Positions 10,360 through 37,376 are shown, numbered from the stretch's first letter. The stretch: DNA of 64,000 bases from an uncultured Spirochaetia bacterium (GCA_937877025.1 CALEGE010000029.1:13696-77695); one strand, 5' to 3'. The notes: generated by a model not told the origin, from the sequence alone. Made by a program: numbers and translations.

Positions 10360-10821
10360 ATGGATAAAACCGAAAAGGCGGCCACAGCGCTTCAGATTGT
10401 CTGTTTTAACGTCGGCAAAGAGGAATATGGCATTGATATTCTCAAGGTGCAGGAAATCCTGAAGCTTCCTAAGATAACCGCATTGCCGAAATCCGCTGAT
10501 TTTATCATGGGAGTTATCGATCTTCGCGGCAAGGTGATACCGATCATCGATCTAAGCAAAAGGTTCCACATTGAAGAGGCCGTAAACAAGAACAGCCTCA
10601 GGGCGATAGTTGTGGATATCCGCGGCAAGAGGGTGGGGCTTGCGATCGATGCGGTGAGCCATGTAATCAAGGTAGAGCAAAAAGACATTGAGCCTCCTCC
10701 TCCAATCGTCAAGGGTATCTCCGGCAGATATATAACCGGCATTGGAAAATTGCAGGACGGATTTGTCATTATCCTGGATATCGATCAGATTTTTTCGTCC
10801 GAGGAGTTCAGTGCGTTATAG
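10360..10821 (+). CDS. cheW: Chemotaxis coupling protein CheW
   Basis: CheW domain (EYGIDILKVQEIL..., GVIDLRGKVIPIIDL). Confidence 0.9.
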   Translation: MDKTEKAATALQIVCFNVGKEEYGIDILKVQEILKLPKITALPKSADFIMGVIDLRGKVIPIIDLSKRFHIEEAVNKNSLRAIVVDIRGKRVGLAIDAVSHVIKVEQKDIEPPPPIVKGISGRYITGIGKLQDGFVIILDIDQIFSSEEFSAL

Positions 10822-12011
10822 ACCGGTTTTTTTCCGGACTTCCTGGCGGCTTCGTTGATTATTTCCTTGAGCGGGATGTTTTTTAATTCGGAGATTCTTT
10901 TGCAATCCTCATATTCAGGCTGTATATTGACGGGCTCTCCGTTGAGATAGCCTGTTTTTATCCTCACTTCCTCGTCGAATACCCTGACGGTGCTGAAACC
11001 GCGCTCCAGTTTTTCGCGGACAACAGGAGAAACTCGCGTTCCGAGTGTCGTTGTTTCCCTGTATATCAGATCTTTAATCCTGTCGAGCGACTCGTTTGGT
11101 GCGATAACCGTAATGAGCGTACCTGGCCGGCCTTTTTTCATTATAACAGGAGTGAGATACGCATCAAGCGCGCCTCGCTGAAAAAGAAGCTCGATAACGT
11201 GCGGATATATCTGAGGATTCATGTCGTCGACGTTGCATTCCAGCAGCACTATGTCGCTCTCCGCGCGGGGTTCGGTTTCGGCCAGCATTGCCCGGGTGTA
11301 GCTGGGATATGTGTAGCTGCGCGTTCCGAATCCTGTTCCCGATTGCAGCAGGGTAAAGCTCATGGGGGCGCGCATCTGCTTGCCGAGCGCTGTGAGTATG
11401 GCGGCGGCGGTCGGTGTGGTCTGCTCGCCGTCCCTGCCGCTCCATACCGCAGTGTAATTTCGTGTCAGTTGCACAACAGCGGGTGCCGGAAGGGGCAATT
11501 CTCCGTGCTGCGATTGTACGGTGCCGCTTCCGAAACAGAATTCGTTGAAATAGAATTTTTCAACGCCAAGGAGATCAAGCGCCGCGCAGAACCCGGTTAT
11601 ATCGATGATGGAGTCGACGGCGCCGACTTCATGAAAGTGCACCTTGTCGGCGGAAAGCCCATGCACCCCGGCCTCCGCCTTGGCGAGCCGTGTGAAGACG
11701 GCAATGCTTTTGTTCCGTATGGATTCGGGAAGCGGGCTTTTCTCGATGATGCCGGTGATGTCGGAAAGCGTTCGATGCACCGGCCCTTCTGTGCACGAAA
11801 TACGGGCGGAGGTGCCGCAAATCCCGTATTTCACCTCCCGAACCGGCGACATATCCCAGCCGTCGAGGCCGAGCTTTTCCAGTTCGCGTCTCAGCGCGTT
11901 CACGTCGAGGCCCAGATCAATTAACGAGCCCAGCAGCATGTCGCCCGACGCGCCGAGCCGAATGTCGAATATCACCGATCGGTTCATTGCGCGAGTTTCC
12001 GTGCCGTACAA
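10785..12011 (-). CDS. larC: LarC-like nickel-pincer cofactor nickel insertase (DUF111)
   Basis: N-terminal IFDIRLGASGDMLLGSLIDLGL motif and ~400-aa length typical of LarC. Overlaps larB's 3' end. Confidence 0.8.
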   Translation of the reverse strand: MYGTETRAMNRSVIFDIRLGASGDMLLGSLIDLGLDVNALRRELEKLGLDGWDMSPVREVKYGICGTSARISCTEGPVHRTLSDITGIIEKSPLPESIRNKSIAVFTRLAKAEAGVHGLSADKVHFHEVGAVDSIIDITGFCAALDLLGVEKFYFNEFCFGSGTVQSQHGELPLPAPAVVQLTRNYTAVWSGRDGEQTTPTAAAILTALGKQMRAPMSFTLLQSGTGFGTRSYTYPSYTRAMLAETEPRAESDIVLLECNVDDMNPQIYPHVIELLFQRGALDAYLTPVIMKKGRPGTLITVIAPNESLDRIKDLIYRETTTLGTRVSPVVREKLERGFSTVRVFDEEVRIKTGYLNGEPVNIQPEYEDCKRISELKNIPLKEIINEAARKSGKKPVYNALNSSDEKI

Positions 12012-12748
12012 AGAATTTTATATGCGAGAAAGGCGGCGCCGAACCCGTTGTCGATGTTCATCACTGCGACGCCCGGTACGCACGAATTGAGCATGCTGAG
12101 AAGGGCGGCGATTCCCTCGAATGACGCCCCGTAGCCGTTCGATGTCGGTACGGCTACGACCGGCGACTGCACAAGCCCCGCGATAACCGTCGCGAGCGCG
12201 CCCTCCATCCCCGCGATGACGATAACGACCGCGGCCGACGCTATTTCGTCCCTGTAATGCATTACCCTGTGAATTCCCGCGACGCCGATGTCGTGCAGCA
12301 GCTCTGCGTCAAGGCCGAGCATTTTCGCGGTTTCGCCAGCCTCCTCCGCGACCGGCATGTCGGACGTGCCGGCGGTGACGATCAGCACCTTCCCTTCAAC
12401 CGGCGCGATATCATGGTTGATGAACGTGATGGTGCGCCCCGCCGCGTTGTAGTGCGCACCGGGGCAGACGGCGAGGATCGCGCCGTATGCCTCGCGGTTA
12501 GCCCTCGTCGCGAGAAGGTTGGAGCCGCGGTCGAGTATCGCCCGCGCTATGGCGGTTATCTGGTCGGGCGTTTTCCCCTGGCAGAATATTACCTCGGGGA
12601 AACCCCAGCGGATCTCGCGGTGATGGTCAATTTTCGCGTAAAGAATGTCCTCGAACGGCAGGTTTTCGATATAGCGCAGAAGCTCATCCTCGGGCAGGTC
12701 GTTGTTTTTGAATCGCCCGAGCAATTCTTTCAGTTTTTCTCTTTCCAT
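11984..12748 (-). CDS. larB: LarB-like PurE-family carboxylase/hydrolase (P2CMN synthase)
   Basis: PurE/NCAIR-mutase-like core (VIAGMEGALATVIAGL, AGTSDMPVAEEA) with an ~100-aa N-terminal extension, as in LarB. Confidence 0.75.
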   Translation of the reverse strand: MEREKLKELLGRFKNNDLPEDELLRYIENLPFEDILYAKIDHHREIRWGFPEVIFCQGKTPDQITAIARAILDRGSNLLATRANREAYGAILAVCPGAHYNAAGRTITFINHDIAPVEGKVLIVTAGTSDMPVAEEAGETAKMLGLDAELLHDIGVAGIHRVMHYRDEIASAAVVIVIAGMEGALATVIAGLVQSPVVAVPTSNGYGASFEGIAALLSMLNSCVPGVAVMNIDNGFGAAFLAYKILCTARKLAQ

Positions 12749-12751
12749 TGG

Positions 12752-13924
12752 TCAGTATGCCGCGATCAGTATTGTTTCCATTTCGTCCCTGGTCAGGGGG
12801 CGCGGGGCGTTTTCTATAAACGGGTACGTAAGGGCGATCTCCGCCACGCGTGAAAATTCGGACTTCCCGATGTCGAACAGCGACAGCCGCTGCGGTATGT
12901 CGATGTCGATTTCCAGCTTTCGTACGCCCTCGACCGCCTTGATCGCGGCCTCGATAACGGTGATCTCCTTTACGTCCTCGTCCATAACCTTCGACATCTG
13001 TACGTATTTGCCCGGCGATGAGGTGAGGTTGTATTCCATGATATGCGGCAATATGACGCCCATTGCGTGCGTGACAGGTATGCTGGTGCGCGATGACAGC
13101 GCCAGCGACAGCGCAAGCGTTATCGAGAGGTTTGCGACCGAAAACGCAACGCCCGACATCACCGACGCGAGCGCAAGCTGTGCGCGCGCCGCCGTGTTCT
13201 GCGGCTCCCTGAAGGCGACAGGGAGATTTTTAAAAATGAGGTCAATGGATTTCAGGGCATAGGTGTTGATCATGCCGTTGTTGATTTTCGATATTACCGA
13301 CTCTGTGGCGAGGGCGAGGCTGCCGACGCTGCTGTAGGCCGTCGATTCGTCATCGATGATGGTCGCTATCTGGGGGTCGATGATAGAGGCCTTCGGAAAC
13401 AGGTATTTATGCGCATACACATTCTTCATCCGGTACTGAATCTCGTCGACATACAGCATCGGAAGGATTTCAAAACCGACCGACGGATATGCGGGTATGG
13501 TGACAAGGTTGACCGGCGGGCTGACCTCGGGGTGTTCGAACAGGTTTTCGCAGAAAAGATAATTGTTCATGAGTAAGGCGACCGCTTTTGCCGCGTTCAT
13601 CGATTCTATGCCGCCGAACCCGATGATCATATCGCAGTGCGTTTTTTTCGCGAAATAGACCGCCGAGTCAATATACTCTGTATCGGGCGTGGCGCTCATT
13701 TCATCGTAAATAATGAAACCGAGCGAGGATTTCGCGATGCTGCGGGATATCTTTTCGATGGCGTCGGAAAATTTTGCGAGGTCCTGGTCGGTGGTTATCA
13801 GTACGGCGCGCGAACCGAAATTTTTTAATATTCCGCCCGCCTCGTTAATGATGTCCTGCTTTAGATAGATTTCGCTTGGCAGATGGAAATCGGGGATAAC
13901 TTCTTTTTTTAACGCTGTCGTCAT
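12752..13924 (-). CDS. Iron-containing alcohol dehydrogenase-family protein (divergent)
   Basis: Fe-ADH/DHQS-like fold with a variant GGGS dinucleotide motif (IGFGGIESMNAAKAV). Starts 8 nt after the flgM terminator T-tract and ends 4 nt before larB, so it looks co-transcribed with larB-larC. Confidence 0.7.
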   Translation of the reverse strand: MTTALKKEVIPDFHLPSEIYLKQDIINEAGGILKNFGSRAVLITTDQDLAKFSDAIEKISRSIAKSSLGFIIYDEMSATPDTEYIDSAVYFAKKTHCDMIIGFGGIESMNAAKAVALLMNNYLFCENLFEHPEVSPPVNLVTIPAYPSVGFEILPMLYVDEIQYRMKNVYAHKYLFPKASIIDPQIATIIDDESTAYSSVGSLALATESVISKINNGMINTYALKSIDLIFKNLPVAFREPQNTAARAQLALASVMSGVAFSVANLSITLALSLALSSRTSIPVTHAMGVILPHIMEYNLTSSPGKYVQMSKVMDEDVKEITVIEAAIKAVEGVRKLEIDIDIPQRLSLFDIGKSEFSRVAEIALTYPFIENAPRPLTRDEMETILIAAY

Positions 13925-13930
13925 GTACGG

Positions 13931-13967
13931 GTATAAAAAAAGCGGATGTTCTTTCTCTCCGCTTTTT
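13931..13967 (-). terminator. Rho-independent terminator downstream of flgM
   Basis: On the minus strand: AAAAAGCGGA-GAGAAAGAACA-TCCGCTTTTT followed by TTTTTTAT. Confidence 0.6.
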
Positions 13968-13994
13968 CCTTCAATTTGATATTATAAATTAGAG

Positions 13995-14291
13995 CTATTT
14001 GCGCAATAAGCTGTTCGCAATTTTATCGGCAACCATTTCAAGCACCTTGTCGTCACTGAATTTGTCGTAGGTGCCCGCCTGGATCTGCTCCTTGATTTCC
14101 CTCACCCTTTCCATGCGGATGTCCGGCGTCTCTTTTACTATCTGGGTATAGCGCGCAACCTCGGCCGCTACCTTGCCTTCTGTGGAAATTTGTATCGAAT
14201 CGCTTTTGCCGCTTTCCTTTGCCCTGGATACGGATTTCGAATTCTTCGTTTCGGTGATGTTATGTATGTTTCCTATCTTGTCGATAACCAT
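13995..14291 (-). CDS. flgM: Anti-sigma-28 factor FlgM
   Basis: 98 aa. C-terminal FlgM-like helices (RMERVREIKEQIQAGTYDKFSDDKVLEMVADKI). Preceded by a sigma-28 consensus promoter. Confidence 0.7.
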   Translation of the reverse strand: MVIDKIGNIHNITETKNSKSVSRAKESGKSDSIQISTEGKVAAEVARYTQIVKETPDIRMERVREIKEQIQAGTYDKFSDDKVLEMVADKIANSLLRK

Positions 14292-14458: not shown

Positions 14459-15157
14459 TCAATCGCGTTTTTTGCCGCGGTACAGTGCAATCGCGAACTC
14501 GCCACGCTCAATTAGGGAGTCCAGCGATTCGTATATCTCCCGCACGCTTCCCCGCCTGATCTCTTCGTATAGTTTGGATATTTCGCGGCCAATGACTATG
14601 CTGGCGTCGGGGACCAGATCGTTCAGGATCGTTATCAGCTTCTTTATGCGGTATGGCGATTCGTATATCACCAATATGCCGTCGAATTCGAGGAGGTGTT
14701 CTATCTCGCGCTTCTTTTTCCCGTCTTTTTTGGAGAGAAATCCGGCGAAAAGTATGTTTTTCTCGGGAAATCCCGCGACGGAGGCGATTGCCGTGAGGGC
14801 TGACGGGCCGGGAACCGGAATCACGGGAATATGATGTTCGAACGCGGCATGGACCAGCCTGCCGCCCGGGTCTGACACGCCGGGTGTGCCCGAATCGGTG
14901 AGGTACGCGATTGAGGTGCCGTCGAGAAGCAGATTGACCGCACGGAGGACCTTTTCGTCCGAGGAGTGGGCGTGCAGCGACTGCAATGGGAGTGATATCC
15001 CATAATGCCTGAGCAGCTTTGCTGTCTGACGCGTATCCTCGCAGTATGCGTACTGCGCCTCCTCTTTGAGAATCCGAAGCGCACGGAGGGTGATATCCTC
15101 CATATTGCCGATAGGCGAGGCGATGATATACAGTGTTCCCGGTTTGTGTGATGCCAT
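14459..15157 (-). CDS. rsmI: 16S rRNA 2'-O-methyltransferase RsmI (tetrapyrrole-methylase fold)
   Basis: LYIIASPIGNMEDITLRALRIL...YCEDTRQTAKLL and the remaining RsmI motifs. Confidence 0.85.
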   Translation of the reverse strand: MASHKPGTLYIIASPIGNMEDITLRALRILKEEAQYAYCEDTRQTAKLLRHYGISLPLQSLHAHSSDEKVLRAVNLLLDGTSIAYLTDSGTPGVSDPGGRLVHAAFEHHIPVIPVPGPSALTAIASVAGFPEKNILFAGFLSKKDGKKKREIEHLLEFDGILVIYESPYRIKKLITILNDLVPDASIVIGREISKLYEEIRRGSVREIYESLDSLIERGEFAIALYRGKKRD

Positions 15158-22751: not shown

Positions 22752-24845
22752 ATGGAACCGGTAGGAATTATGGAAATTGCGGAATGTAATGCCGATATCG
22801 TGACCAACAGGTTCGTGTGCATATCCGAAAGGGTGAAAAACAGAATCGATTTTTCCGCGGCGATGGATATTACGCCGTTCGTTTTCGAGGATATCGCAAA
22901 GGAAATTGAGAACATTACACACGGGTTGTCCGGCGCGGCCTTTGCGCTTGTATTCGCAAACCGGAGTGAATGGGACGATATTGAAAAAACGCTGTCGGAT
23001 TTACGGAATGAGCGGCTGTATTCCACATGCGTGCTTGTCGGCAGCGAGGATGATATCGTTGATGAGGCGGATCTTGGCGGCATACTGCACTATGCCGCAT
23101 CGCGGATAAACGCGCGTGAATATGACTTTCTCGTGAAAAAGGGATTTGCGGTTCTCGATGAACAGCACCGTGCCGCGCGTGATCGTGCGGAGTATAACGC
23201 CCTGCTTCTTGACATGAAACAAGACCAGGAAGACCTCATCAACATTGGAAGGTCGCTGTCCATAGAAAAGGACTCTGACAAGCTGCTGCGCCTGATACTG
23301 CTGCTTGGAAAAAAAATCACCGGAGCCGACGCGGGGAGTATTTATATCGTTGAAGAAAAGGATGACGGAGCGAAGCATTTACGCTTTAAATACTCGCACA
23401 CGTTTTCCAAAAACCTCCCGTATGAAGAATTCGTGCTGCCAATTGACGCCAATTCCATCGCCGGATATGTGGCGATGACAGGAAAGGTGCTTAATATTCC
23501 GGATGTATACGAACTTTCGGATGGCGATCCAGTTTCGTTCAATTCTACGTTCGACAGCGCGCATAATTACCGCTCGAGATCCATGCTTGTTGTGCCCATG
23601 AAAAACAATGTCGACGAGATAATCGGCGTTATTCAGCTCATCAACAGCAAGGAGGACACCAGCGAGAATTCGCGGATCAGGGGCAACGAGGCCTTTGAAA
23701 TCACTCTTGCAACGACTGAGGACTTCAATGTGAAGGTTGTGCCGTTTGCCGCGCGGTACGAATCGCTTCTCGAGGCGGTTGCCGGCCAGGCGGCAATTGC
23801 GTTAGAAAACAACAGGATGATGAAGCAGATTCAGTTCCAGTTCGAGGAATTTGTCAGAGCGTCGGTTTCCGCGATAGAGTCCCGAGACCCGGCGACATCC
23901 GGGCACTCCTTCCGCGTTGCCGAGATATGCAAACAGCTTGCGTACGCGGTCAACAGCGAAACAGAGGGTGAGTACGAAACTGTCAATTTCAGCGAGACGG
24001 CGATAAAGGAGCTTGAATACGCGGCGCTGTTGCACGATTTTGGAAAGGTGTATATCGATCTTGCAGTGTTTCAAAAGGCGAAAAAGCTTTTCCCGAAAGA
24101 ACTCGACAACCTGATGCTGAAGATGGATTATCTGTACCGGTGCACCGAACTTGAGTATAATGCGAAAGAAATTGCCCTGCTGAAAAAATCACGAAACGGG
24201 GCGAACGTCCCGGCGCTGACCGGGGGTCTCGAAGCGGAACGGAAGCGTCTGCTCGATGCAATCATGGACATTAAAAAGGAACTGCGTGCGCTGAACGAGC
24301 CCACGGCGACCGATGCCGATCCCCTGAAGGTGCTCGATGGCGTGATTTCGAAGCTGCCTGCGGTGTCGTGCCTGCTGCCGGATGGTAACGCGATTGATGT
24401 GATTTCAGAAAGCGAACGCCGCAATCTCGAAATACGCCGCGGCAGCCTCAATTCGCAGGAGCGCAAAATCATTGAGAGCCATGTGGTGCACACATACAAT
24501 TTTGTCAGCAGAATACCGTGGCCGCCGGAGTTTCGCAATATCCCGGAGATTGCCGCGAAACACCACGAAAAGCTCGATGGCTCGGGATATCCCGGAAGAT
24601 TACACGGCGAGAACGATATACCCATCCAGGCGAGGATGATGGCGATTGCCGATATCTTCGACGCGCTCTCCGCATCGGACAGGCCGTACAAAAAATCGCT
24701 GCCGATAGAAAAAACTCTCGCGATTTTACAGGATGAGGCAAAACAGCGCAAGCTTGACCAGAAACTTGTTGATCTTTTTATCAGGTACAGAATATATGAG
24801 AAAACCGATAAGAATTCACTTAAAGGAGAAAACACGGCGACATGA
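22752..24845 (+). CDS. GAF-domain / HD-GYP c-di-GMP phosphodiesterase-family protein with large insertion in the HD domain
   Basis: HD motif (LLHDFGKV) and HHEKLDGSGYP (HD-GYP signature) are separated by ~185 aa instead of ~55. A GAF-like segment lies upstream. Stop overlaps the next start (ATGA). Confidence 0.75.
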   Translation: MEPVGIMEIAECNADIVTNRFVCISERVKNRIDFSAAMDITPFVFEDIAKEIENITHGLSGAAFALVFANRSEWDDIEKTLSDLRNERLYSTCVLVGSEDDIVDEADLGGILHYAASRINAREYDFLVKKGFAVLDEQHRAARDRAEYNALLLDMKQDQEDLINIGRSLSIEKDSDKLLRLILLLGKKITGADAGSIYIVEEKDDGAKHLRFKYSHTFSKNLPYEEFVLPIDANSIAGYVAMTGKVLNIPDVYELSDGDPVSFNSTFDSAHNYRSRSMLVVPMKNNVDEIIGVIQLINSKEDTSENSRIRGNEAFEITLATTEDFNVKVVPFAARYESLLEAVAGQAAIALENNRMMKQIQFQFEEFVRASVSAIESRDPATSGHSFRVAEICKQLAYAVNSETEGEYETVNFSETAIKELEYAALLHDFGKVYIDLAVFQKAKKLFPKELDNLMLKMDYLYRCTELEYNAKEIALLKKSRNGANVPALTGGLEAERKRLLDAIMDIKKELRALNEPTATDADPLKVLDGVISKLPAVSCLLPDGNAIDVISESERRNLEIRRGSLNSQERKIIESHVVHTYNFVSRIPWPPEFRNIPEIAAKHHEKLDGSGYPGRLHGENDIPIQARMMAIADIFDALSASDRPYKKSLPIEKTLAILQDEAKQRKLDQKLVDLFIRYRIYEKTDKNSLKGENTAT

Positions 24846-25780
24846 AACGGCACTTCATCCAGGGACTCGCGCTGCTATGCGTGCTGTTCGTTTCGCTTTC
24901 CGCTGTGTCTGTGCGTGCCGATGAAAAGGTCACGTTAGTGTACACCAACTCTCTCAATGGGGCACTCGATTACTGCCGCTGTAAAAGCGATCCTAAAGGC
25001 GGACTGGTGAAGCGGGCCACCGAGATTCGCGAAATACAAAAGGCGTATCCGAATGTCGTTCTCTTCGAATCGGGAGATTTTGCGTCGTATGACCCGGACC
25101 CCCTGTTATACGGGTATCTGGTACAAGCGTACCGCCATATCAAATACGACGCGATACTCTTCGGCGATCAGGAATTTTCCGCGGGAATCCCCAATTTTCT
25201 GCGTTACAAAAACGAATTGCCGTTCGTCTGCGACAACATTGTTATAAAGAATGAAAACCGCTGGGAGCAGTTTGCCACGCGAACGATAACGCTGAAACGC
25301 GGCGGTCTTGTTATCGGCGTTATCGGAACAATCGCGCCTTCCGCGTTCAGATATTACAGCCGCGGTATTACCGGCTCGGTGCGGGTTTCCGGACAGGTGG
25401 ATGAGATTCGCAAGGATGTGAAGGCGTTGCGAAACGATGGGGCGGGGCTCGTGGTGCTTCTTTCCCATTCCGGCTACGGGGCCGACTGCGAGCTTGAAAA
25501 AGATATCCCGGGTGTTGATATCATCATTGGCGGCCATTCGCAGACGTTGTTGAAAAATCCCGTGAAGGGCGTCAACGCCATTATCGTCCAGGCGGGCGCC
25601 GACGGTGCGCACATCGGCATACTTGAATGTGTCGTTTCAAAGGACGGCATTCGCTCGTATAAAAATTCGTTCCGCCGGCCGGACGAGAACCGGCCTGCCG
25701 ACGATGCGTATATACGCTCGCTGATTACGCGGTATCAGGAAGAGACGGAAAAGGAATTTAAAAAAATGAGGTTCAAGTGA
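24842..25780 (+). CDS. Secreted 5'-nucleotidase/calcineurin-like metallophosphoesterase-fold protein with degenerate metal-ligand motifs
   Basis: Signal peptide. The GD motif (ESGDFASYDP) and GGHSQT are present. Motif I reads YTNSLNGAL instead of HTNDxHG, and GNHE is replaced by GDQE. Confidence 0.55.
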   Translation: MKRHFIQGLALLCVLFVSLSAVSVRADEKVTLVYTNSLNGALDYCRCKSDPKGGLVKRATEIREIQKAYPNVVLFESGDFASYDPDPLLYGYLVQAYRHIKYDAILFGDQEFSAGIPNFLRYKNELPFVCDNIVIKNENRWEQFATRTITLKRGGLVIGVIGTIAPSAFRYYSRGITGSVRVSGQVDEIRKDVKALRNDGAGLVVLLSHSGYGADCELEKDIPGVDIIIGGHSQTLLKNPVKGVNAIIVQAGADGAHIGILECVVSKDGIRSYKNSFRRPDENRPADDAYIRSLITRYQEETEKEFKKMRFK

Positions 25781-26280
25781 TGATTGACGCGTCAGAAGCG
25801 CGCACCCTTCTGCGGGAGATGTTTTTCATCGTGATTGCCGCCGCCTTTCTGGGCTATTGCATTGCCATGTTTCATCCGAAAGGGTACGTGCTTATAGGGC
25901 GGGGCGCGTTGAATGATACGCGGATTGTGACGATCTCCGTCGATGAGGCGCGGCCGAAGCGTAATTGCTCCGCCCTCTTTATCGACGCCCGCGGACGTTT
26001 GGACTACAACGTGTCGCATATTGCCGGCGCGGTCAGCATACCCGCGTCGCCGGAATCGGTTACACTGCATGCGATCAGGGAGCACTTTAAAAAAATCGGG
26101 GACGCGGGCGAGCTGGTCGTCTACTGCGGCGGCAGCTCATGCGGGATTTCCACACAGGTCGCGAAGCGCCTGATTTCGATGGGATATCCCCGGCATATCT
26201 ATGTGCTGGCGGAGGGGTTTGCGGGATGGCGGGAGAAACGCCTGCCGCTGGAAGCCGGAGAGGAGCATGATGGGGAGTAA
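25780..26280 (+). CDS. Membrane-anchored rhodanese-domain sulfurtransferase
   Basis: N-terminal TM. Rhodanese fold with an active-site loop Cys (VVYCGGSSCGIS). Start overlaps the preceding stop (GTGATG). Confidence 0.7.
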   Translation: MIDASEARTLLREMFFIVIAAAFLGYCIAMFHPKGYVLIGRGALNDTRIVTISVDEARPKRNCSALFIDARGRLDYNVSHIAGAVSIPASPESVTLHAIREHFKKIGDAGELVVYCGGSSCGISTQVAKRLISMGYPRHIYVLAEGFAGWREKRLPLEAGEEHDGE

Positions 26281-26283
26281 GCC

Positions 26284-26784
26284 ATGGAATCGGTAATCAA
26301 TTTTTTTCGTGACACCGCATACGGCAATCGCTTCAGCGCGTGTGTGCGTGTTTTACTCGGAGCGCTTCTTGCGTATGGGGGATTCTTCAAACTGCTCGAT
26401 ATCGAGTCGTTCGGGGGTGTGATACGAATGTACGATATGCTTCCGGAGGCGTTTGCGCCGCACGCCGCGATTGTGCTGCCTCCCCTGGAGGTGCTGCTGG
26501 GTATCATGCTTGTGGTCGGATATAAAACCAGGGCGGCGAGCCTGCTGTCGATGATACTGATGGGCGTCTTCGCCGTGGCGATTGCCGTGAATGCGGCGCG
26601 CGGCGCTTCGTTCGATTGCGGCTGTCTTGAGCTTGGAAGGTTCGGGATCAGCGAAAATATCAGCATGACGCTTGCCGCCAGGAATATAGTGCTGATACTC
26701 GCGTTCCTGCTTGTGTTTAACCTGAGAAAAAATGTGTTGTCGATCGACGCGCGCATCGAACGCGGAACGTTGCGCGATATCTGA
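26284..26784 (+). CDS. MauE/DoxX-family membrane protein
   Basis: Four predicted TM helices and a DCGC motif characteristic of MauE-like proteins. 3-nt gap after the rhodanese gene. Confidence 0.6.
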   Translation: MESVINFFRDTAYGNRFSACVRVLLGALLAYGGFFKLLDIESFGGVIRMYDMLPEAFAPHAAIVLPPLEVLLGIMLVVGYKTRAASLLSMILMGVFAVAIAVNAARGASFDCGCLELGRFGISENISMTLAARNIVLILAFLLVFNLRKNVLSIDARIERGTLRDI

Positions 26785-26793
26785 GAAGGCACT

Positions 26794-28395
26794 ATGATTG
26801 CACAGGTGCTTGGCGGCATAGGCATTTTCCTGATCGGCATGATTCTGATGACCGACGGTCTTAAATCGCTGGGCGGAGACGCCCTGCGGAGGGCTCTCAC
26901 GCGGTTTACTGGGGGGACGGTGCAATCCATCATTTCTGGATTTGCTGTCACCTCTCTGGTGCAGGCGTCGAGCGCCACCATCCTCGCAACGATCGGCTTT
27001 GTATCCGCGGGGCTCATAACGTTTACGCAGGCCATCGCGATCGTATTCGGCGCGAATCTGGGGACCACCACCATCGGCTGGCTGGTGTCGCTGCTTGGTT
27101 TTAAGTTTCACGTCGAGCTTGTCGCGATGCCGATGGCGGGTATCGGCGCGTTAATGATGCTGCTTGCGCGCGGCAGAAAGGCCTCTGCGGGAATGGTCAT
27201 TGCCGGATTTGGCCTCCTGTTCATCGGCATTGCCACGCTGCAATCGGGGATGAAACATCTTACCGACAACGTCGATATCACCACATTTCCCGATGCGGGA
27301 TGGTACGGCAGGGTTGTGCTTATCGCCGTCGGAATTTTAATGACAATCCTGATGCAGTCGTCGACAGCGGCGCTCGTAACCACGCTCGCGGCGCTGTATA
27401 CCGGCAATCTTACCCTGGCGCAGGCCGCCGCGCTTGTGATAGGACAGAGTATCGGTAAAACGTCGACAGCGGTTATTGCGACAATCGGCGCGTCGGTCCA
27501 GGCCAGGCGCGCCGCTCTGGTGCATATAATTTTCAATTGCGTCACGGGATTCGTTGTCTATTTTCTGTTTGCGCCCTTTCTCAATACGACCACATGGCTC
27601 TGCTCGCTTGCGGGCATCCATGATCCTTCTGTGGCGCTGTCGGGATTTTTTACGCTCTATAATCTTTTCGGCATCGTTTTGCTTTCCCCGTTCATCTCGC
27701 ATATCGGGGCTCTGATAGAGCGCTATATTCCCGAGCGCGGCTCGGCGCTGACGCGTAATCTTGACGATTCTGTGACGAAGGTGGCGCCTGTCGCGGTCGA
27801 AACGGCGCGCCGTACGGTGATTGGTATCGCGGCGCTTGTGATGGGATCGCTTCGCAGACTTGTGCTTGCCGAGGTTACCTACAGGGATATTGCCGATGAT
27901 ATTGAAGGAGCGCAGACCGCCTTAGCCGAAACGGGAAGATTTCTCGGGAAAGTCAGTTCGGAATCCGCGTCGGCGGAGGTGCACCACCAGCACATATCGG
28001 TGCTGCACGCAATCGACCATCTTGAGCGGCTGACCGATGCGTGCAAAGAGATAGAGGAGGTGCGCACCGTAGCGCATATCGAAGAATTACGCGCCATTGC
28101 CCTTGAAAAGCTTGACCAGCTTGATGATGTAGTGAAATGGCTGCAGGGCCGTTCTTTTGAACCGCCGGTACGCATCGTGGAGGCCATGTCACGATCGATT
28201 GCCGGCATACGGCAGACGCAGCGCGTCGAGGTGCTCGAGCTCACGGCGCGGGGCGGAATTGACCCGAACCTCGCTATGGGAAAACTTGAAGCGATGCGCT
28301 GGCTTGACCGGCTGGTGTATCATATCTGGCGTGCGGTCTACCACCTCGGCGACAGGCTGCAAGAGCAGGTGCAACTGCCCCGGGACAGGCGATAA
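26794..28395 (+). CDS. Na+/phosphate-cotransporter-family (NptA-like) membrane protein with C-terminal PhoU-like domain
   Basis: N-terminal MIAQVLGGIGIFLIGMILMTDGLK... typical of Na/Pi-cotransporter II-related proteins. C-terminal helical PhoU-like region. Confidence 0.8.
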   Translation: MIAQVLGGIGIFLIGMILMTDGLKSLGGDALRRALTRFTGGTVQSIISGFAVTSLVQASSATILATIGFVSAGLITFTQAIAIVFGANLGTTTIGWLVSLLGFKFHVELVAMPMAGIGALMMLLARGRKASAGMVIAGFGLLFIGIATLQSGMKHLTDNVDITTFPDAGWYGRVVLIAVGILMTILMQSSTAALVTTLAALYTGNLTLAQAAALVIGQSIGKTSTAVIATIGASVQARRAALVHIIFNCVTGFVVYFLFAPFLNTTTWLCSLAGIHDPSVALSGFFTLYNLFGIVLLSPFISHIGALIERYIPERGSALTRNLDDSVTKVAPVAVETARRTVIGIAALVMGSLRRLVLAEVTYRDIADDIEGAQTALAETGRFLGKVSSESASAEVHHQHISVLHAIDHLERLTDACKEIEEVRTVAHIEELRAIALEKLDQLDDVVKWLQGRSFEPPVRIVEAMSRSIAGIRQTQRVEVLELTARGGIDPNLAMGKLEAMRWLDRLVYHIWRAVYHLGDRLQEQVQLPRDRR

Positions 28396-34244: not shown

Positions 34245-35915
34245 ATGAAGCTGCTTCTGCTGTATCTGTGCAATTATGAAGACCGACGCGATTATTTTCT
34301 CTCGTCAATGCCTTCCGGATTGGTATCGCTTGCCGCGTATCTCGAGGGACGCGGCTGTGATGTGACCCTCGCGAATTTTTCAAAAACTGGATGCCGTGCC
34401 GCCCTGAAATACGCGGTGCAGTCATCTCCCGATGTTGTCGGCATGTCGTTGTACACGCACAACAGGGCGGACTCGTTAAAACTTGTAAAAGAGATAAAAA
34501 AATCGCTGCCGAACACAGTTGTCATCACCGGGGGGCCGCACGCCACGCATCTCGCGGACGAATTGCTGAAGCGGGCGCCCGCGATCGATTATGTGGTGTG
34601 CGGCGAGGGTGAAAAGGCGATGGCGTTTCTGTTGAAGAAAATTGCCGCCGGCCTGGCGCCCGCCCGCGGCGCCTATGAAAAGGGCAGAATTGAGAATCTC
34701 GATACGCTTCCCTTTCCCGGGCAATTCAGGGGAACTCGCGTCGGCATCGACCCGAATGAACAGTTCAAGGTAATCATCACGTCGCGCGGGTGCCCCGCCC
34801 GCTGCACGTTCTGCTGTTCGCCCGGATTCTGGGGACGCAGAACCGCGTTTCGCGGCGCGGAGAATATCGTCCGGGAAATTGAGTACCTTCATACCGAATA
34901 CGGTATCATATATTTTTCCATTCGCGATGATAATTTTACCCTCCGCAGGGAGCGTGTGCTCGAATTCTGCCGCCTGCTTGTCGAAAAGAAGCTGTACATC
35001 ATGTGGAACTGCCAGTCCAGGGTCGATACTGTCGACGAAGAGATGCTCGTGTCGATGAAGCGGGCCGGGCTTGAGCAGATACAGTTCGGCGTTGAATCGG
35101 GATCGGAAAAGATTCTGAAGATGTACGATAAAAACATCACGCCAGCGGAGATATCGAAAGCGATGGAAATGACGCGCCATGCGGGGATTTATCTTTCGAT
35201 CTATCTCATGGCCGGCATGAACGGTGAAACGCGGACCGACATTAATATGACGCGCGCATTGATACGGCAGACGCTTCCGGGTGACGGCGTCGTATCGCCG
35301 GTGGCGCTGTATCCCGGCACACAATTGTACAACGATTTGAAACGCGACGGCCGTATCGCCGATTCGGTGTGGTTTTCTAAGAAAGATGCCGGCATCTATC
35401 TGCGCAACGATACGGAAGTGGAAGAATGGATGGCATTGCTGCTGAACGAGATCGGGAAGGTGCGCGAGCGGGCGTGGTACGGTGAAAGCGATTTTAAACA
35501 GCATCGCAAAGTCACGGGAAAGGATTGCTGGGTTACCGATATACTCGAAGGCGATTATTATATGGATGAAGACCGGTTTGCCGACGCGGAATCGCGGTAC
35601 GTCAGGGTGATCGCCGCTCATCCCCGCAATCTCTGGGGGTATCTCAGGATGGGCAAGGCGCAATTCGCCATGGCGCGGTATGCGGAAGCGGCGCAGAGTT
35701 ACGGGATGGTGACGCGTCTTGCGCCGCGATATTATGGCGGATGGCTCAAGCGGGCGGAATCGCTTCTGGGGCTGGGAATGGGGGATGAGGCGCGTCAGTG
35801 CGCCGACGAGGCGGCGCGCCTCAACGGATATGACCCGAGGATAAAAAACCTTAAAAGGCTGCTGGGCGGTAATTCCACGAAACGCCGGGTCCCGTTACCG
35901 CGGCCCTCTTCGTGA
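34245..35915 (+). CDS. B12-binding-domain radical SAM protein with C-terminal TPR repeats
   Basis: N-terminal cobalamin-binding-like domain, CxxxCxxC (CPARCTFC), TPR-like C-terminus. SD AGGGG upstream of ATG 34245; the ORF-track start at 34221 is less likely. Confidence 0.75.
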   Translation: MKLLLLYLCNYEDRRDYFLSSMPSGLVSLAAYLEGRGCDVTLANFSKTGCRAALKYAVQSSPDVVGMSLYTHNRADSLKLVKEIKKSLPNTVVITGGPHATHLADELLKRAPAIDYVVCGEGEKAMAFLLKKIAAGLAPARGAYEKGRIENLDTLPFPGQFRGTRVGIDPNEQFKVIITSRGCPARCTFCCSPGFWGRRTAFRGAENIVREIEYLHTEYGIIYFSIRDDNFTLRRERVLEFCRLLVEKKLYIMWNCQSRVDTVDEEMLVSMKRAGLEQIQFGVESGSEKILKMYDKNITPAEISKAMEMTRHAGIYLSIYLMAGMNGETRTDINMTRALIRQTLPGDGVVSPVALYPGTQLYNDLKRDGRIADSVWFSKKDAGIYLRNDTEVEEWMALLLNEIGKVRERAWYGESDFKQHRKVTGKDCWVTDILEGDYYMDEDRFADAESRYVRVIAAHPRNLWGYLRMGKAQFAMARYAEAAQSYGMVTRLAPRYYGGWLKRAESLLGLGMGDEARQCADEAARLNGYDPRIKNLKRLLGGNSTKRRVPLPRPSS

Positions 35916-37376
35916 AACCTTCCATGTATATAGCGCGATCGATGCCGCGATTGCCGCGTTAAGCGATTCAACATCTCCGCTCATCGGTATAGAAAGAGCG
36001 TCCACCTTCAACGTGTCCGGAATGCCGGGGCCCTCGATCCCCGCAAGCAGCAGAAACCTTTCGGGAAAAACGAACCCGTCGATCGGCGCCCCCCCGCTGT
36101 CGAGCGCCAGAAGCGGCGCGTTTCCCTCTTTCACCGATTGAGCAAACTCGGCGAGCGAGGGGCCCCTGCTGAGGCGCGCGGCGAACACTGCGCCCCCCGA
36201 TGCGCGGATGCTTTTTGGGTGAAATGGGTGAGCGGCCTCGCGCAGCAGCACGATGTGCTGCACGCCGAATCCCACGGCGCTCCTGATAACAGTACCGACG
36301 TTCGACGGGTCCTGAAACGGGATAAGCAGTGTGCAGCCCTCGCCAGCCGTTCGGTCCCATTCGGGGATTTCCGGCGTACGCGCTTCCAGAACCGGGCCGT
36401 TGGTGTTGAATATGTCGATCTCGTTGAACAGGGATTTCTTTACAATATAAAGCCGGCGGTTACGCTGAAACGATCCGATGCAGTCGTTCATGCCGCTGTC
36501 GGTTTCGGCGTAACCGTCGAAGAGCGCCAACGCTTCGCAGAGGCCGGGATGCCGGGTTATTGTTTCGTGCACTTGTTTTTTTCCGGACACGAGTGTTTTC
36601 CCAATTTTCTTTATGCCGTCGGACGATATCAGTTTTTTCATCTCCCTGAATGTCGCGTTTTCCGGCGACGAGATCGGAATGCCCGGCGTTTCGCCGGCCT
36701 GTGAGAGGATGCGATACGTCGTTTTCCGCGCAGAGGAAGTCTTCGTGAATATGAGCAAACGCCTGCCGAACTGAGTGCCGGGCAGCGTATAGTCGCGGTC
36801 GAGCTCGATTTCGTAATCGGCGTCGTGTGACGGCGATATTTTGCGGATATCCTCGTCGGCGGCGGGCCCCTTCATGAAAATCACCCTCCCTCCGCGCGGG
36901 AGGAAATGCGCGACCCTGCCGAGGGTGTCGTCTACCGATTCGAGCGCCCGGGTAATCACGCCCGCGACCTCGAAGACCGAATGCTCCGTCACCATGTGGG
37001 GATAAATCTCCACATTACTGAGGTTCAGCGCCGCCACGGTCTCCGCGAGAAACGCGGCCCGCTTTTTGCGCGGTTCGGCGAGGATGAGGCGAAGATCGGG
37101 CTTCATGATTTTCAGCGGAATCCCCGGAAACCCCGCGCCCGTGCCGATATCGACAAGGGGGGAAGGAAGATCGCAGAGACGCGTAACGAGCGCACAGTCG
37201 ATAAAATGCTTGATAACGATATCCTCGAAACGGTTGAGCCTGGTAAGGTCGAGTTCGTCGTTGTGTTTTTGCAGAAGGGAATAGTACGAGCCGAATTGAT
37301 CAATTTGCGTTCCGGTCAGGGTTAGTCCCGATTGCTGGAAAAGCTGAGCCATTGCCGTTTTTTCAGTTTTACGCAT
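35895..37376 (-). CDS. rsmG: Fusion protein: RsmG (16S rRNA m7G527 methyltransferase) N-terminal domain + SpoU/TrmH-family 2'-O-ribose RNA methyltransferase C-terminal domain
   Basis: N-terminal ~215 aa: VDIGTGAGFPGIPLKI and GidB-like context. C-terminal ~270 aa: SPOUT motifs (PSNVGTVIRSAVGFGV, LLLAGIEGPGIP, VESLNAAIAASIALY). Single uninterrupted ORF. Confidence 0.75.
   Translation of the reverse strand: MRKTEKTAMAQLFQQSGLTLTGTQIDQFGSYYSLLQKHNDELDLTRLNRFEDIVIKHFIDCALVTRLCDLPSPLVDIGTGAGFPGIPLKIMKPDLRLILAEPRKKRAAFLAETVAALNLSNVEIYPHMVTEHSVFEVAGVITRALESVDDTLGRVAHFLPRGGRVIFMKGPAADEDIRKISPSHDADYEIELDRDYTLPGTQFGRRLLIFTKTSSARKTTYRILSQAGETPGIPISSPENATFREMKKLISSDGIKKIGKTLVSGKKQVHETITRHPGLCEALALFDGYAETDSGMNDCIGSFQRNRRLYIVKKSLFNEIDIFNTNGPVLEARTPEIPEWDRTAGEGCTLLIPFQDPSNVGTVIRSAVGFGVQHIVLLREAAHPFHPKSIRASGGAVFAARLSRGPSLAEFAQSVKEGNAPLLALDSGGAPIDGFVFPERFLLLAGIEGPGIPDTLKVDALSIPMSGDVESLNAAIAASIALYTWKVSRRGPR

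Follow-up and report, generated by a model that had tools for sequence, protein, structure and literature searches.

The locus described here lies on a 64,000-nt stretch of DNA from an uncultured Spirochaetia bacterium (GCA_937877025.1, CALEGE010000029.1:13696-77695); this whole stretch is referred to below as the window, and positions are counted from its first letter. On the minus strand, between 10785 and 14291, the gene order is flgM, a gene of the iron-dependent alcohol dehydrogenase (Fe-ADH) family, larB, and larC, the last two belonging to the synthesis of a cofactor, nickel-pincer nucleotide (NPN). The original prediction had described a larB-larC operon headed by the Fe-ADH-family gene and had suggested that this gene could mark an uncharacterised NPN-dependent enzyme class or a variant lar pathway. 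The Fe-ADH-like protein was found to have kept its fold and lost its active site, and the ancient and general linkage of its gene is to flgM, not to lar. The features of the locus are as follows.

14459-15157, minus strand: rsmI, 16S rRNA C1402 2'-O-methyltransferase (TIGR00096, 184 bits against a cut-off of 168)
13995-14291, minus strand: flgM, anti-sigma-28 factor (PF04316, 3e-11)
13935-13967, minus strand: terminator-like element 3' of flgM, read directly from the sequence
12752-13924, minus strand: Fe-ADH-family gene, 390 aa, with a degenerate active site (PF00465, 3e-28; PF25137, 2e-30)
11984-12748, minus strand: larB, nicotinic acid adenine dinucleotide (NaAD) carboxylase/hydrolase of nickel-pincer cofactor synthesis, 254 aa (NF033503, 280 bits)
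10785-11987, minus strand: larC, CTP-dependent nickel insertase, 400 aa (PF01969, 420 bits; TIGR00299; NF052512)
10360-10821, plus strand: cheW, convergent with larC (PF01584, 1.5e-42)

The predicted identities of the Fe-ADH-family gene, larB, and larC and their order on the minus strand were borne out by open reading frames (ORFs) at these coordinates and by the Pfam and NCBIfam matches. The packing is operon-like, with a 3-nt spacer between the Fe-ADH-like stop codon and the larB start and a 4-nt overlap (ATGA) between the larB stop codon and the larC start; the overlap had been predicted, and the spacer is one nucleotide shorter than the 4 nt given for it. Downstream, larC and cheW overlap convergently by 37 nt. 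The gene cheW is the final one of a long plus-strand flagellar/chemotaxis block, and the left flank of the window is a fliN-fliOPQR-flhBA-flhFG-fliA flagellar operon. No Rfam family at the gathering threshold and no tRNA was found anywhere in the window, and a riboswitch or other RNA element there was rejected on these grounds.

The Fe-ADH-like gene had also been placed directly after the flgM terminator, and this position held. The element, at about 13967-13935 on the minus strand, consists of an A-tract, a 6-bp stem (AGCGGA/TCCGCT), an 11-nt loop, and a run of seven T residues; it had been omitted by a consensus terminator scan because its loop is longer than 8 nt. A T-run of at least five residues, about 45-70 nt after the flgM stop codon and with a stable fold, was found in nearly all of 84 related loci. 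The distance from the end of this element to the Fe-ADH-like ATG is 10 nt in the window and about 10-40 nt across approximately 80 loci. Because the hairpin and T-run end so near the start codon, there is no room for a separate promoter before the Fe-ADH-like gene, and read-through of the terminator may be needed for this gene and larBC to be expressed. The window copy has no obvious Shine-Dalgarno sequence.

larB and larC and the local absence of larE and larA

LarB exceeded the equivalog cut-off of NF033503 (280 bits, cut-off 175), with positions 1-207 of the 209 in the profile covered, and this match comprises a PurE-like domain with the LarB N-terminal extension. The C-terminal motif LLSMLNSCVPGV aligns with LLTMLNSCAEGV of Lactiplantibacillus plantarum, and the MLNSC within it contains the catalytic cysteine, which we take to be at the position of Cys221 in L. 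plantarum LarB. LarC matched both halves of the known system in a single protein, LarC1 (TIGR00299) at 183.5 bits with a cut-off of 90 and LarC2 (NF052512) at 146.9 bits with a cut-off of 50, and its PF01969 match (420 bits) spans positions 2-374 of 375. The longest ORF for larC is 10785-12011, with an in-frame TTG at 12011 as an alternative start; the start was taken at the ATG at 11987, as in the 400-aa form of the gene callers. Going by these profile scores, both larB and larC are typical of families already known.

In comparison with the L. plantarum lar system (larA-larB-larC-larE), the window likewise has genuine LarB and LarC equivalogs that are adjacent and translationally coupled, but it has no larA or larE in the neighbourhood, its larC is one unbroken ORF, and its larBC pair sits inside a flagellar/chemotaxis region. 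Two further observations were made on lar genes in other records. Among the LarB homologues, the 402-aa protein P0403 has AIRC (LarB-type) and Ni_insertion (LarC-type) Pfam domains together, possibly through fusion of LarB with LarC or as a truncated merge. In the L. plantarum plasmid pLP12-1, a frameshift splits the larB located between larA and larC (L094, 5100-6000), which the gene table omits; this copy is probably a pseudogene, or the record may have a sequencing error in it.

The claimed absence of larE and larA from the neighbourhood was upheld. In the precomputed Pfam annotation of every called gene, extending from about 9.4 kb left of the window to about 3 kb beyond its right end (-9.4 kb to +67 kb), there was neither a PP-loop/LarE-like gene nor a LarA homologue (Lar_N, PF09861), and tblastn with the LarA and LarE of plasmid pLP12-1 gave zero matches at E ≤ 1 in the window or in approximately 175 loci. 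At the level of the locus, the complete set of LarB, LarE, and LarC is therefore not encoded together, since larE is missing beside larB and larC. An extra 7 kb between larC and cheW in locus L023 was considered as a site for larE or larA and was rejected; it encodes a methyl-accepting chemotaxis protein, histidine kinases, and a response regulator. Among the top 120 LarC clusters listed, none was found on the 1.6-4.9 Mb contigs of lar-less members, which is weak evidence for the passenger explanation set out below.

Fold and active site of the Fe-ADH-like protein

Both PF00465 and PF25137 cover the Fe-ADH-like protein over their full length. The AlphaFold2 model has a predicted local distance difference test (pLDDT) score of 91.2 and a predicted template modelling (pTM) score of 0.90, and Foldseek gave template modelling (TM) scores of 0.88-0.91 to DhaT, methanol dehydrogenases, ADH2, and FucO, with 0.90 to DhaT 3bfj. 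The active site was examined in pairwise HMMER alignments against DhaT (3bfj) and other solved structures and by aligning the 120 closest homologues to Escherichia coli FucO with MAFFT, using D195, H199, H262, and H276 of the 382-aa E. coli FucO sequence as the ligand reference. All four metal ligands are replaced in the window protein (D to G201, H to L205, H to L270, and H to V284), which is the outcome of the comparison with FucO and DhaT that the original prediction had proposed. The same four positions are occupied by non-ligands in 120 of the 120 closest homologues, with S/A/C/G, I/L/M, L/M, and V/I/L/M, respectively. The variant GGGS motif, also noted earlier, reads GGIESMN (residues 104-110) where the NAD(P) diphosphate loop GGGSxxD would stand, and G-G-[ILV]-[ED]-S-I-N is found there among the 120 homologues. 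The TTAGTGSE loop has been remodelled to a strongly conserved P-x-[FY]-G-F-E, and the adenosine-ribose Asp is lost as well.

In an exhaustive search of 1.84 billion cluster representatives, the nearest 50%-identity clusters beyond the close homologues, approximately 35 at 27-50% identity, were all degenerate in the same way, and canonical proteins with GGGSD and the Asp-His-His-His ligands (DHHH) started only at about E 1e-44. This degenerate Fe-ADH-fold group, with at least about 35 such clusters, is large, old, and apparently undescribed; the literature searched held no description of this variant and no link of the Fe-ADH family to lar/NPN or to flgM. All 16 NCBIfam matches of the window protein were three- to fivefold under their equivalog cut-offs, the best being ErcA at 176 bits with a cut-off of 550. 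Compared with the group III Fe-dependent alcohol dehydrogenases (FucO, DhaT, and Zymomonas ADH2), the window protein has the same two-domain fold at 20-25% identity, with both Pfam domains end to end, but Asp-His-His-His, GGGSxxD, and TTAGTGSE are all replaced, it belongs to no named equivalog, and its gene accompanies flgM and not a catabolic operon. ErcA, the Pseudomonas Fe-ADH-like regulatory protein (NF041833), is a family member whose credited role lies in regulation and not in metabolism; on the scores given above, the window protein is not its orthologue, and the likeness is an analogy from the family name only.

With none of the four Fe ligands left, and with the dinucleotide-binding glycine loop and the Asp for the adenosine ribose also gone, the Fe-ADH-like protein is predicted to be unable to function as an alcohol dehydrogenase with NAD(P) and Fe. 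It is extremely improbable that it is an ordinary active iron-dependent alcohol/aldehyde oxidoreductase standing beside lar genes by chance: the Pfam domains, the confident fold, and the name "iron-containing alcohol dehydrogenase" in the public records would agree with such an enzyme, but every family member has lost all four metal ligands together with the GGGSxxD loop, the scores fall short of every NCBIfam equivalog cut-off, and an active alcohol dehydrogenase was rejected on the ligand and loop alignment. A decaying pseudogene was also ruled out, as the gene is intact and approximately 60% identical over more than 80 species with many invariant residues. The protein is most likely non-catalytic or otherwise repurposed. 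The most conserved stretch of the family is the C-terminal helix TVIEAAIKAVEGVRKLE, not the former active site, which suggests that this helix forms a partner-binding surface. Residues C97 and C125 are nearly invariant in the window clade and are Ala in the consensus of distant lineages.

Linkage to flgM and to lar across related loci

A genome-collection scan with one genome per species gave 506 relatives, and the counts out of 80 are for the best 80 of these, obtained by tblastn of the window neighbours. All 80 are Spirochaetota metagenome-assembled genomes (MAGs), many of them labelled Leptospirales. The gene flgM is immediately upstream of the Fe-ADH-like gene in 79 of the 80 loci and is upstream in six of eight distant loci (L098, L099, L101, L160, L179, and L180), rsmI is upstream of flgM in 58 of the 80 and in distant loci L099, L160, L179, and L180, and convergent cheW follows downstream in 76. 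The lar genes are less constant, with larB in 28 loci, larC in 25, and an adjacent larE in none; when present, larB and larC are always between the Fe-ADH-like gene and cheW. In the other 52 loci, the Fe-ADH-like gene abuts cheW directly and there is no lar gene within 10 kb, and three near-complete genomes display this lar-less form. The window protein itself was found on approximately 80 metagenome contigs with identical context. Co-occurrence of the Fe-ADH-like gene with larBC, which had been suggested as a check on the prediction, was partial, as larB is present in the 28 loci, which belong to one clade, and in two distant loci (L099 and L179), and lar is absent from the 52.

A neighbour-joining tree of the Fe-ADH-like proteins showed a clean division between a lar-less clade and a lar-positive one of 33 loci, the window among them, and because the lar-positive loci form one clade, the 28 loci count as about one evolutionary event. 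Within the lar-positive clade, L038 and L061 have lost both lar genes, and L030 (3130-5619) has lost larC, its larB being intact with cheW approximately 80 nt after it; the Fe-ADH-like gene is intact in each of the three. An apparent truncated larB in L023 is an artefact of a run of N. When outgroups were added to the tree, a small lar-less group was basal. The extended synteny of the window, without lar, was found in the two nearest outgroups, P0242 (44% identity) and P0246 (38%), with rsmI-flgM-X facing cheW-hfq-miaA-gmk-remA-yicC-cheD-cheR-FapA, where X is the Fe-ADH-like gene. The simplest history compatible with these arrangements would be a single insertion of larBC into a pre-existing slot between flgM-X and cheW, a gain rather than a loss. 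All spirochaete LarCs that were checked, down to 44-45% identity, are encoded in this same order behind an Fe-ADH-like gene and larB, including those whose loci differ in synteny past cheW.

The mean pairwise identity of the Fe-ADH-like proteins is nearly the same in the two clades (0.606 vs 0.614), and the sole clade-specific residues are K232/R, Y298/F, D315/G, and G333/A, all conservative. Of these, K232, Y298, and G333 are ancestral states that are also found in the lar-less outgroups, and D315 does not recur in the second lineage with larB, described below. The clade comparison revealed no His, Lys, or Cys specific to lar-linked members.

The second lineage was found in a metagenome scan with a six-sequence alignment, which gave four informative loci, the remainder being canonical Fe-ADHs. 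Its flgM, Fe-ADH-like gene, and larB are at L099 7992-9929 and L179 8841-10771. The LarB proteins of these two loci are labelled "Spirochaetia bacterium" by NCBI and are genuine (NF033503, 273 bits), and the Fe-ADH-like protein is 38% identical to that of the window. There is no larC within 10 kb of larB in either locus, and a convergent AsnC-family regulator follows larB. Beyond ancestral states, no residues are convergent between the two lar-linked lineages. As far as these sequences go, lar linkage is limited to two lineages and has left no mark on the Fe-ADH-like protein.

Two other features of the window were recorded. A 493-aa ORF (35895-37376, minus strand) combines RsmG/GidB 16S rRNA methyltransferase and SpoU-type 2'-O-methyltransferase domains (Pfam annotation of L011), and a similar 617-aa methyltransferase fusion adjoins a distant Fe-ADH-like gene in L100. 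A plus-strand run at 24842-28395 encodes a 312-aa protein without a Pfam match, a rhodanese, a MauE/DoxX membrane protein, and a Na/Pi cotransporter; it may be a sulfur-handling cluster, and no link of it to lar was shown.

Explanations for the larBC linkage

With a confidence only a little above even, we favour the explanation that the Fe-ADH-like gene encodes a degenerate flgM-linked protein and that larBC are co-transcribed passengers serving enzymes encoded elsewhere. The locus would then consist of two parts of separate history, an old pair of flgM and the Fe-ADH-fold gene and a genuine larB-larC pair. In the ancestor of one subclade, the latter would have been inserted between the Fe-ADH-like gene and convergent cheW, and vertical inheritance would have followed. 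Both lar genes would share a transcript with the Fe-ADH-like gene, fed by read-through of the flgM hairpin or by a promoter within or upstream of flgM. LarB and LarC would make their share of the nickel-pincer cofactor for LarA homologues encoded elsewhere in the genome, and LarE would likewise be encoded elsewhere. Spirochaetota with LarA homologues have an average of two or more per genome (PMC11770544), so canonical users elsewhere are plausible.

Several observations weigh against larBC being mere passengers. In almost all lar-positive loci, 1-5 nt separate the Fe-ADH-like gene from larB, and the arrangement has been kept while LarC diverged to 43-45% identity. In L099 and L179, where rsmI and flgM precede the Fe-ADH-like gene, larB follows it after a spacer of 2-3 nt, and the LarB proteins are 53-57% identical to LarBs of Desulfobacterales/Clostridia vs 43-48% to those of the window clade. 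These identities suggest that larB was acquired separately at this junction, a pattern that differences in rate could mimic; passenger status becomes less likely, because two separate arrivals of larB at one junction would be improbable for a mere passenger. A second outgroup-rooted tree placed a lar-positive member basal, the rooting of these neighbour-joining trees being unstable, which leaves room for an ancestral lar linkage followed by many losses. Finally, neither LarE nor LarA was found in approximately 75 kb around the window or within 10 kb in approximately 35 lar-positive loci, so the cofactor users and the sulfur insertase LarE are assumed rather than seen in the neighbourhoods searched.

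An alternative that takes the tight coupling as functional is that the degenerate Fe-ADH-fold protein itself uses or binds NPN or the LarB product pyridinium-3,5-biscarboxylate mononucleotide (P2CMN). A mononucleotide cofactor with its own metal would render the Fe site and the ADP-binding loop redundant, and operon coupling to larB would secure its supply. The protein would be a further non-LarA scaffold, after the aldo-keto reductase (AKR)-type NphT reported in 2026 (PMC13524815) and the NPAD-dependent ornithine cyclodeaminases (Desguin 2025, as cited in PMC13524815). We consider this unlikely, and several points speak for it. The tight junctions are kept across a deep clade, the pair of Fe-ADH-like gene and larB recurs in a second lineage with a non-sister LarB, and larB is retained beside the gene where larC has been lost (L030). 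Exactly the Fe ligands and the dinucleotide determinants are gone, while the remodelled loop on the nicotinamide mononucleotide (NMN) side, P-x-[FY]-G-F-E, is strongly conserved; since the Fe site and the ADP-binding determinants were lost together, this is the pattern expected if a metal-carrying mononucleotide had replaced NAD and Fe. There is also precedent for NAD(P)-enzyme families switching to the nickel-pincer cofactor (PMC13524815). The screens that found the ornithine cyclodeaminases (2025) and NphT (2026) needed a nearby LarE, so this type of lar cluster was skipped, and published pipelines that require LarE within 20 ORFs or are anchored on LarE would miss it.

The likeness to NphT and the lar-associated AKRs (PMC13524815) and to the ornithine cyclodeaminases is that a member of an NAD(P)-oxidoreductase family stands beside nickel-pincer genes with no LarA in the cluster. 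However, those clusters contain LarE, which the window cluster lacks, and those candidates have a lar-specific His/Lys (or His) motif, whereas the window family has none and mostly has no lar neighbour, and its binding of the cofactor is hypothetical. Measured by the co-localisation of larB, larC, and larE used for NphT and the AKRs (PMC13524815), the linkage is inconsistent (28, 25, and none of the 80 loci, respectively), and the lar-specific His (Ni ligand) and Lys (thioamide tether) looked for in the same work are absent. Approximately 65% of the family and the nearest outgroups are without lar within 10 kb and are equally conserved, no His, Lys, or Cys is lar-specific and none is invariant in the wider degenerate group, and the former metal-site positions are now aliphatic. 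Moreover, the local absence of LarE means that the cluster alone cannot make the thiocarboxylate pincer, and the universal partner of the gene is flgM, not lar. The broader proposition that the flgM-linked, metal-site-less Fe-ADH-fold family of Spirochaetota as a whole binds NPN or P2CMN, as a new scaffold for the cofactor, is one that we regard as distinctly doubtful.

The idea that the Fe-ADH-like gene leads the operon in place of a LarA-type user is weakened by the separation from larBC that the original prediction had named as part of its refutation, with 52 of the 80 relatives and two outgroups lar-less in the same slot and under the same constraints, and it retains in its favour the 1-5 nt junction and the recurrence in a second lineage. 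An uncharacterised NPN-dependent enzyme class is possible and is not the likeliest reading. A role as an accessory of cofactor biosynthesis, in which the protein would serve LarB by holding NaAD or P2CMN or, in a variant pathway, would stand in for LarE at its step, is very improbable. The tightest linkage is indeed to larB specifically (L030, L099, and L179), LarE was not found nearby, and C97 and C125 are nearly invariant in the window clade, but the two cysteines are Ala in the distant-lineage consensus, the PP-loop/ATP-binding motif required by LarE chemistry is missing from the protein, lar neighbours are lacking in most of the family, and canonical lar systems need no such accessory (PMC11770544; PMC13524815).

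The passenger explanation remains the one favoured here, and the two outcomes for the cofactor have different consequences. Binding of the cofactor by the Fe-ADH-like protein would make it a new scaffold and could connect flagellar sigma-28/FlgM control to a metabolite derived from nicotinate. Without such binding, the locus would show that lar adjacency can stem from a single insertion into a conserved slot, with the 28 loci representing one event. Either way, the degenerate Fe-ADH-fold family may be an unrecognised component of flagellar sigma-28/FlgM biology, and as a group without metal or NAD sites whose gene is nearly always located right after flgM, it is a candidate component of spirochaete motility regulation.

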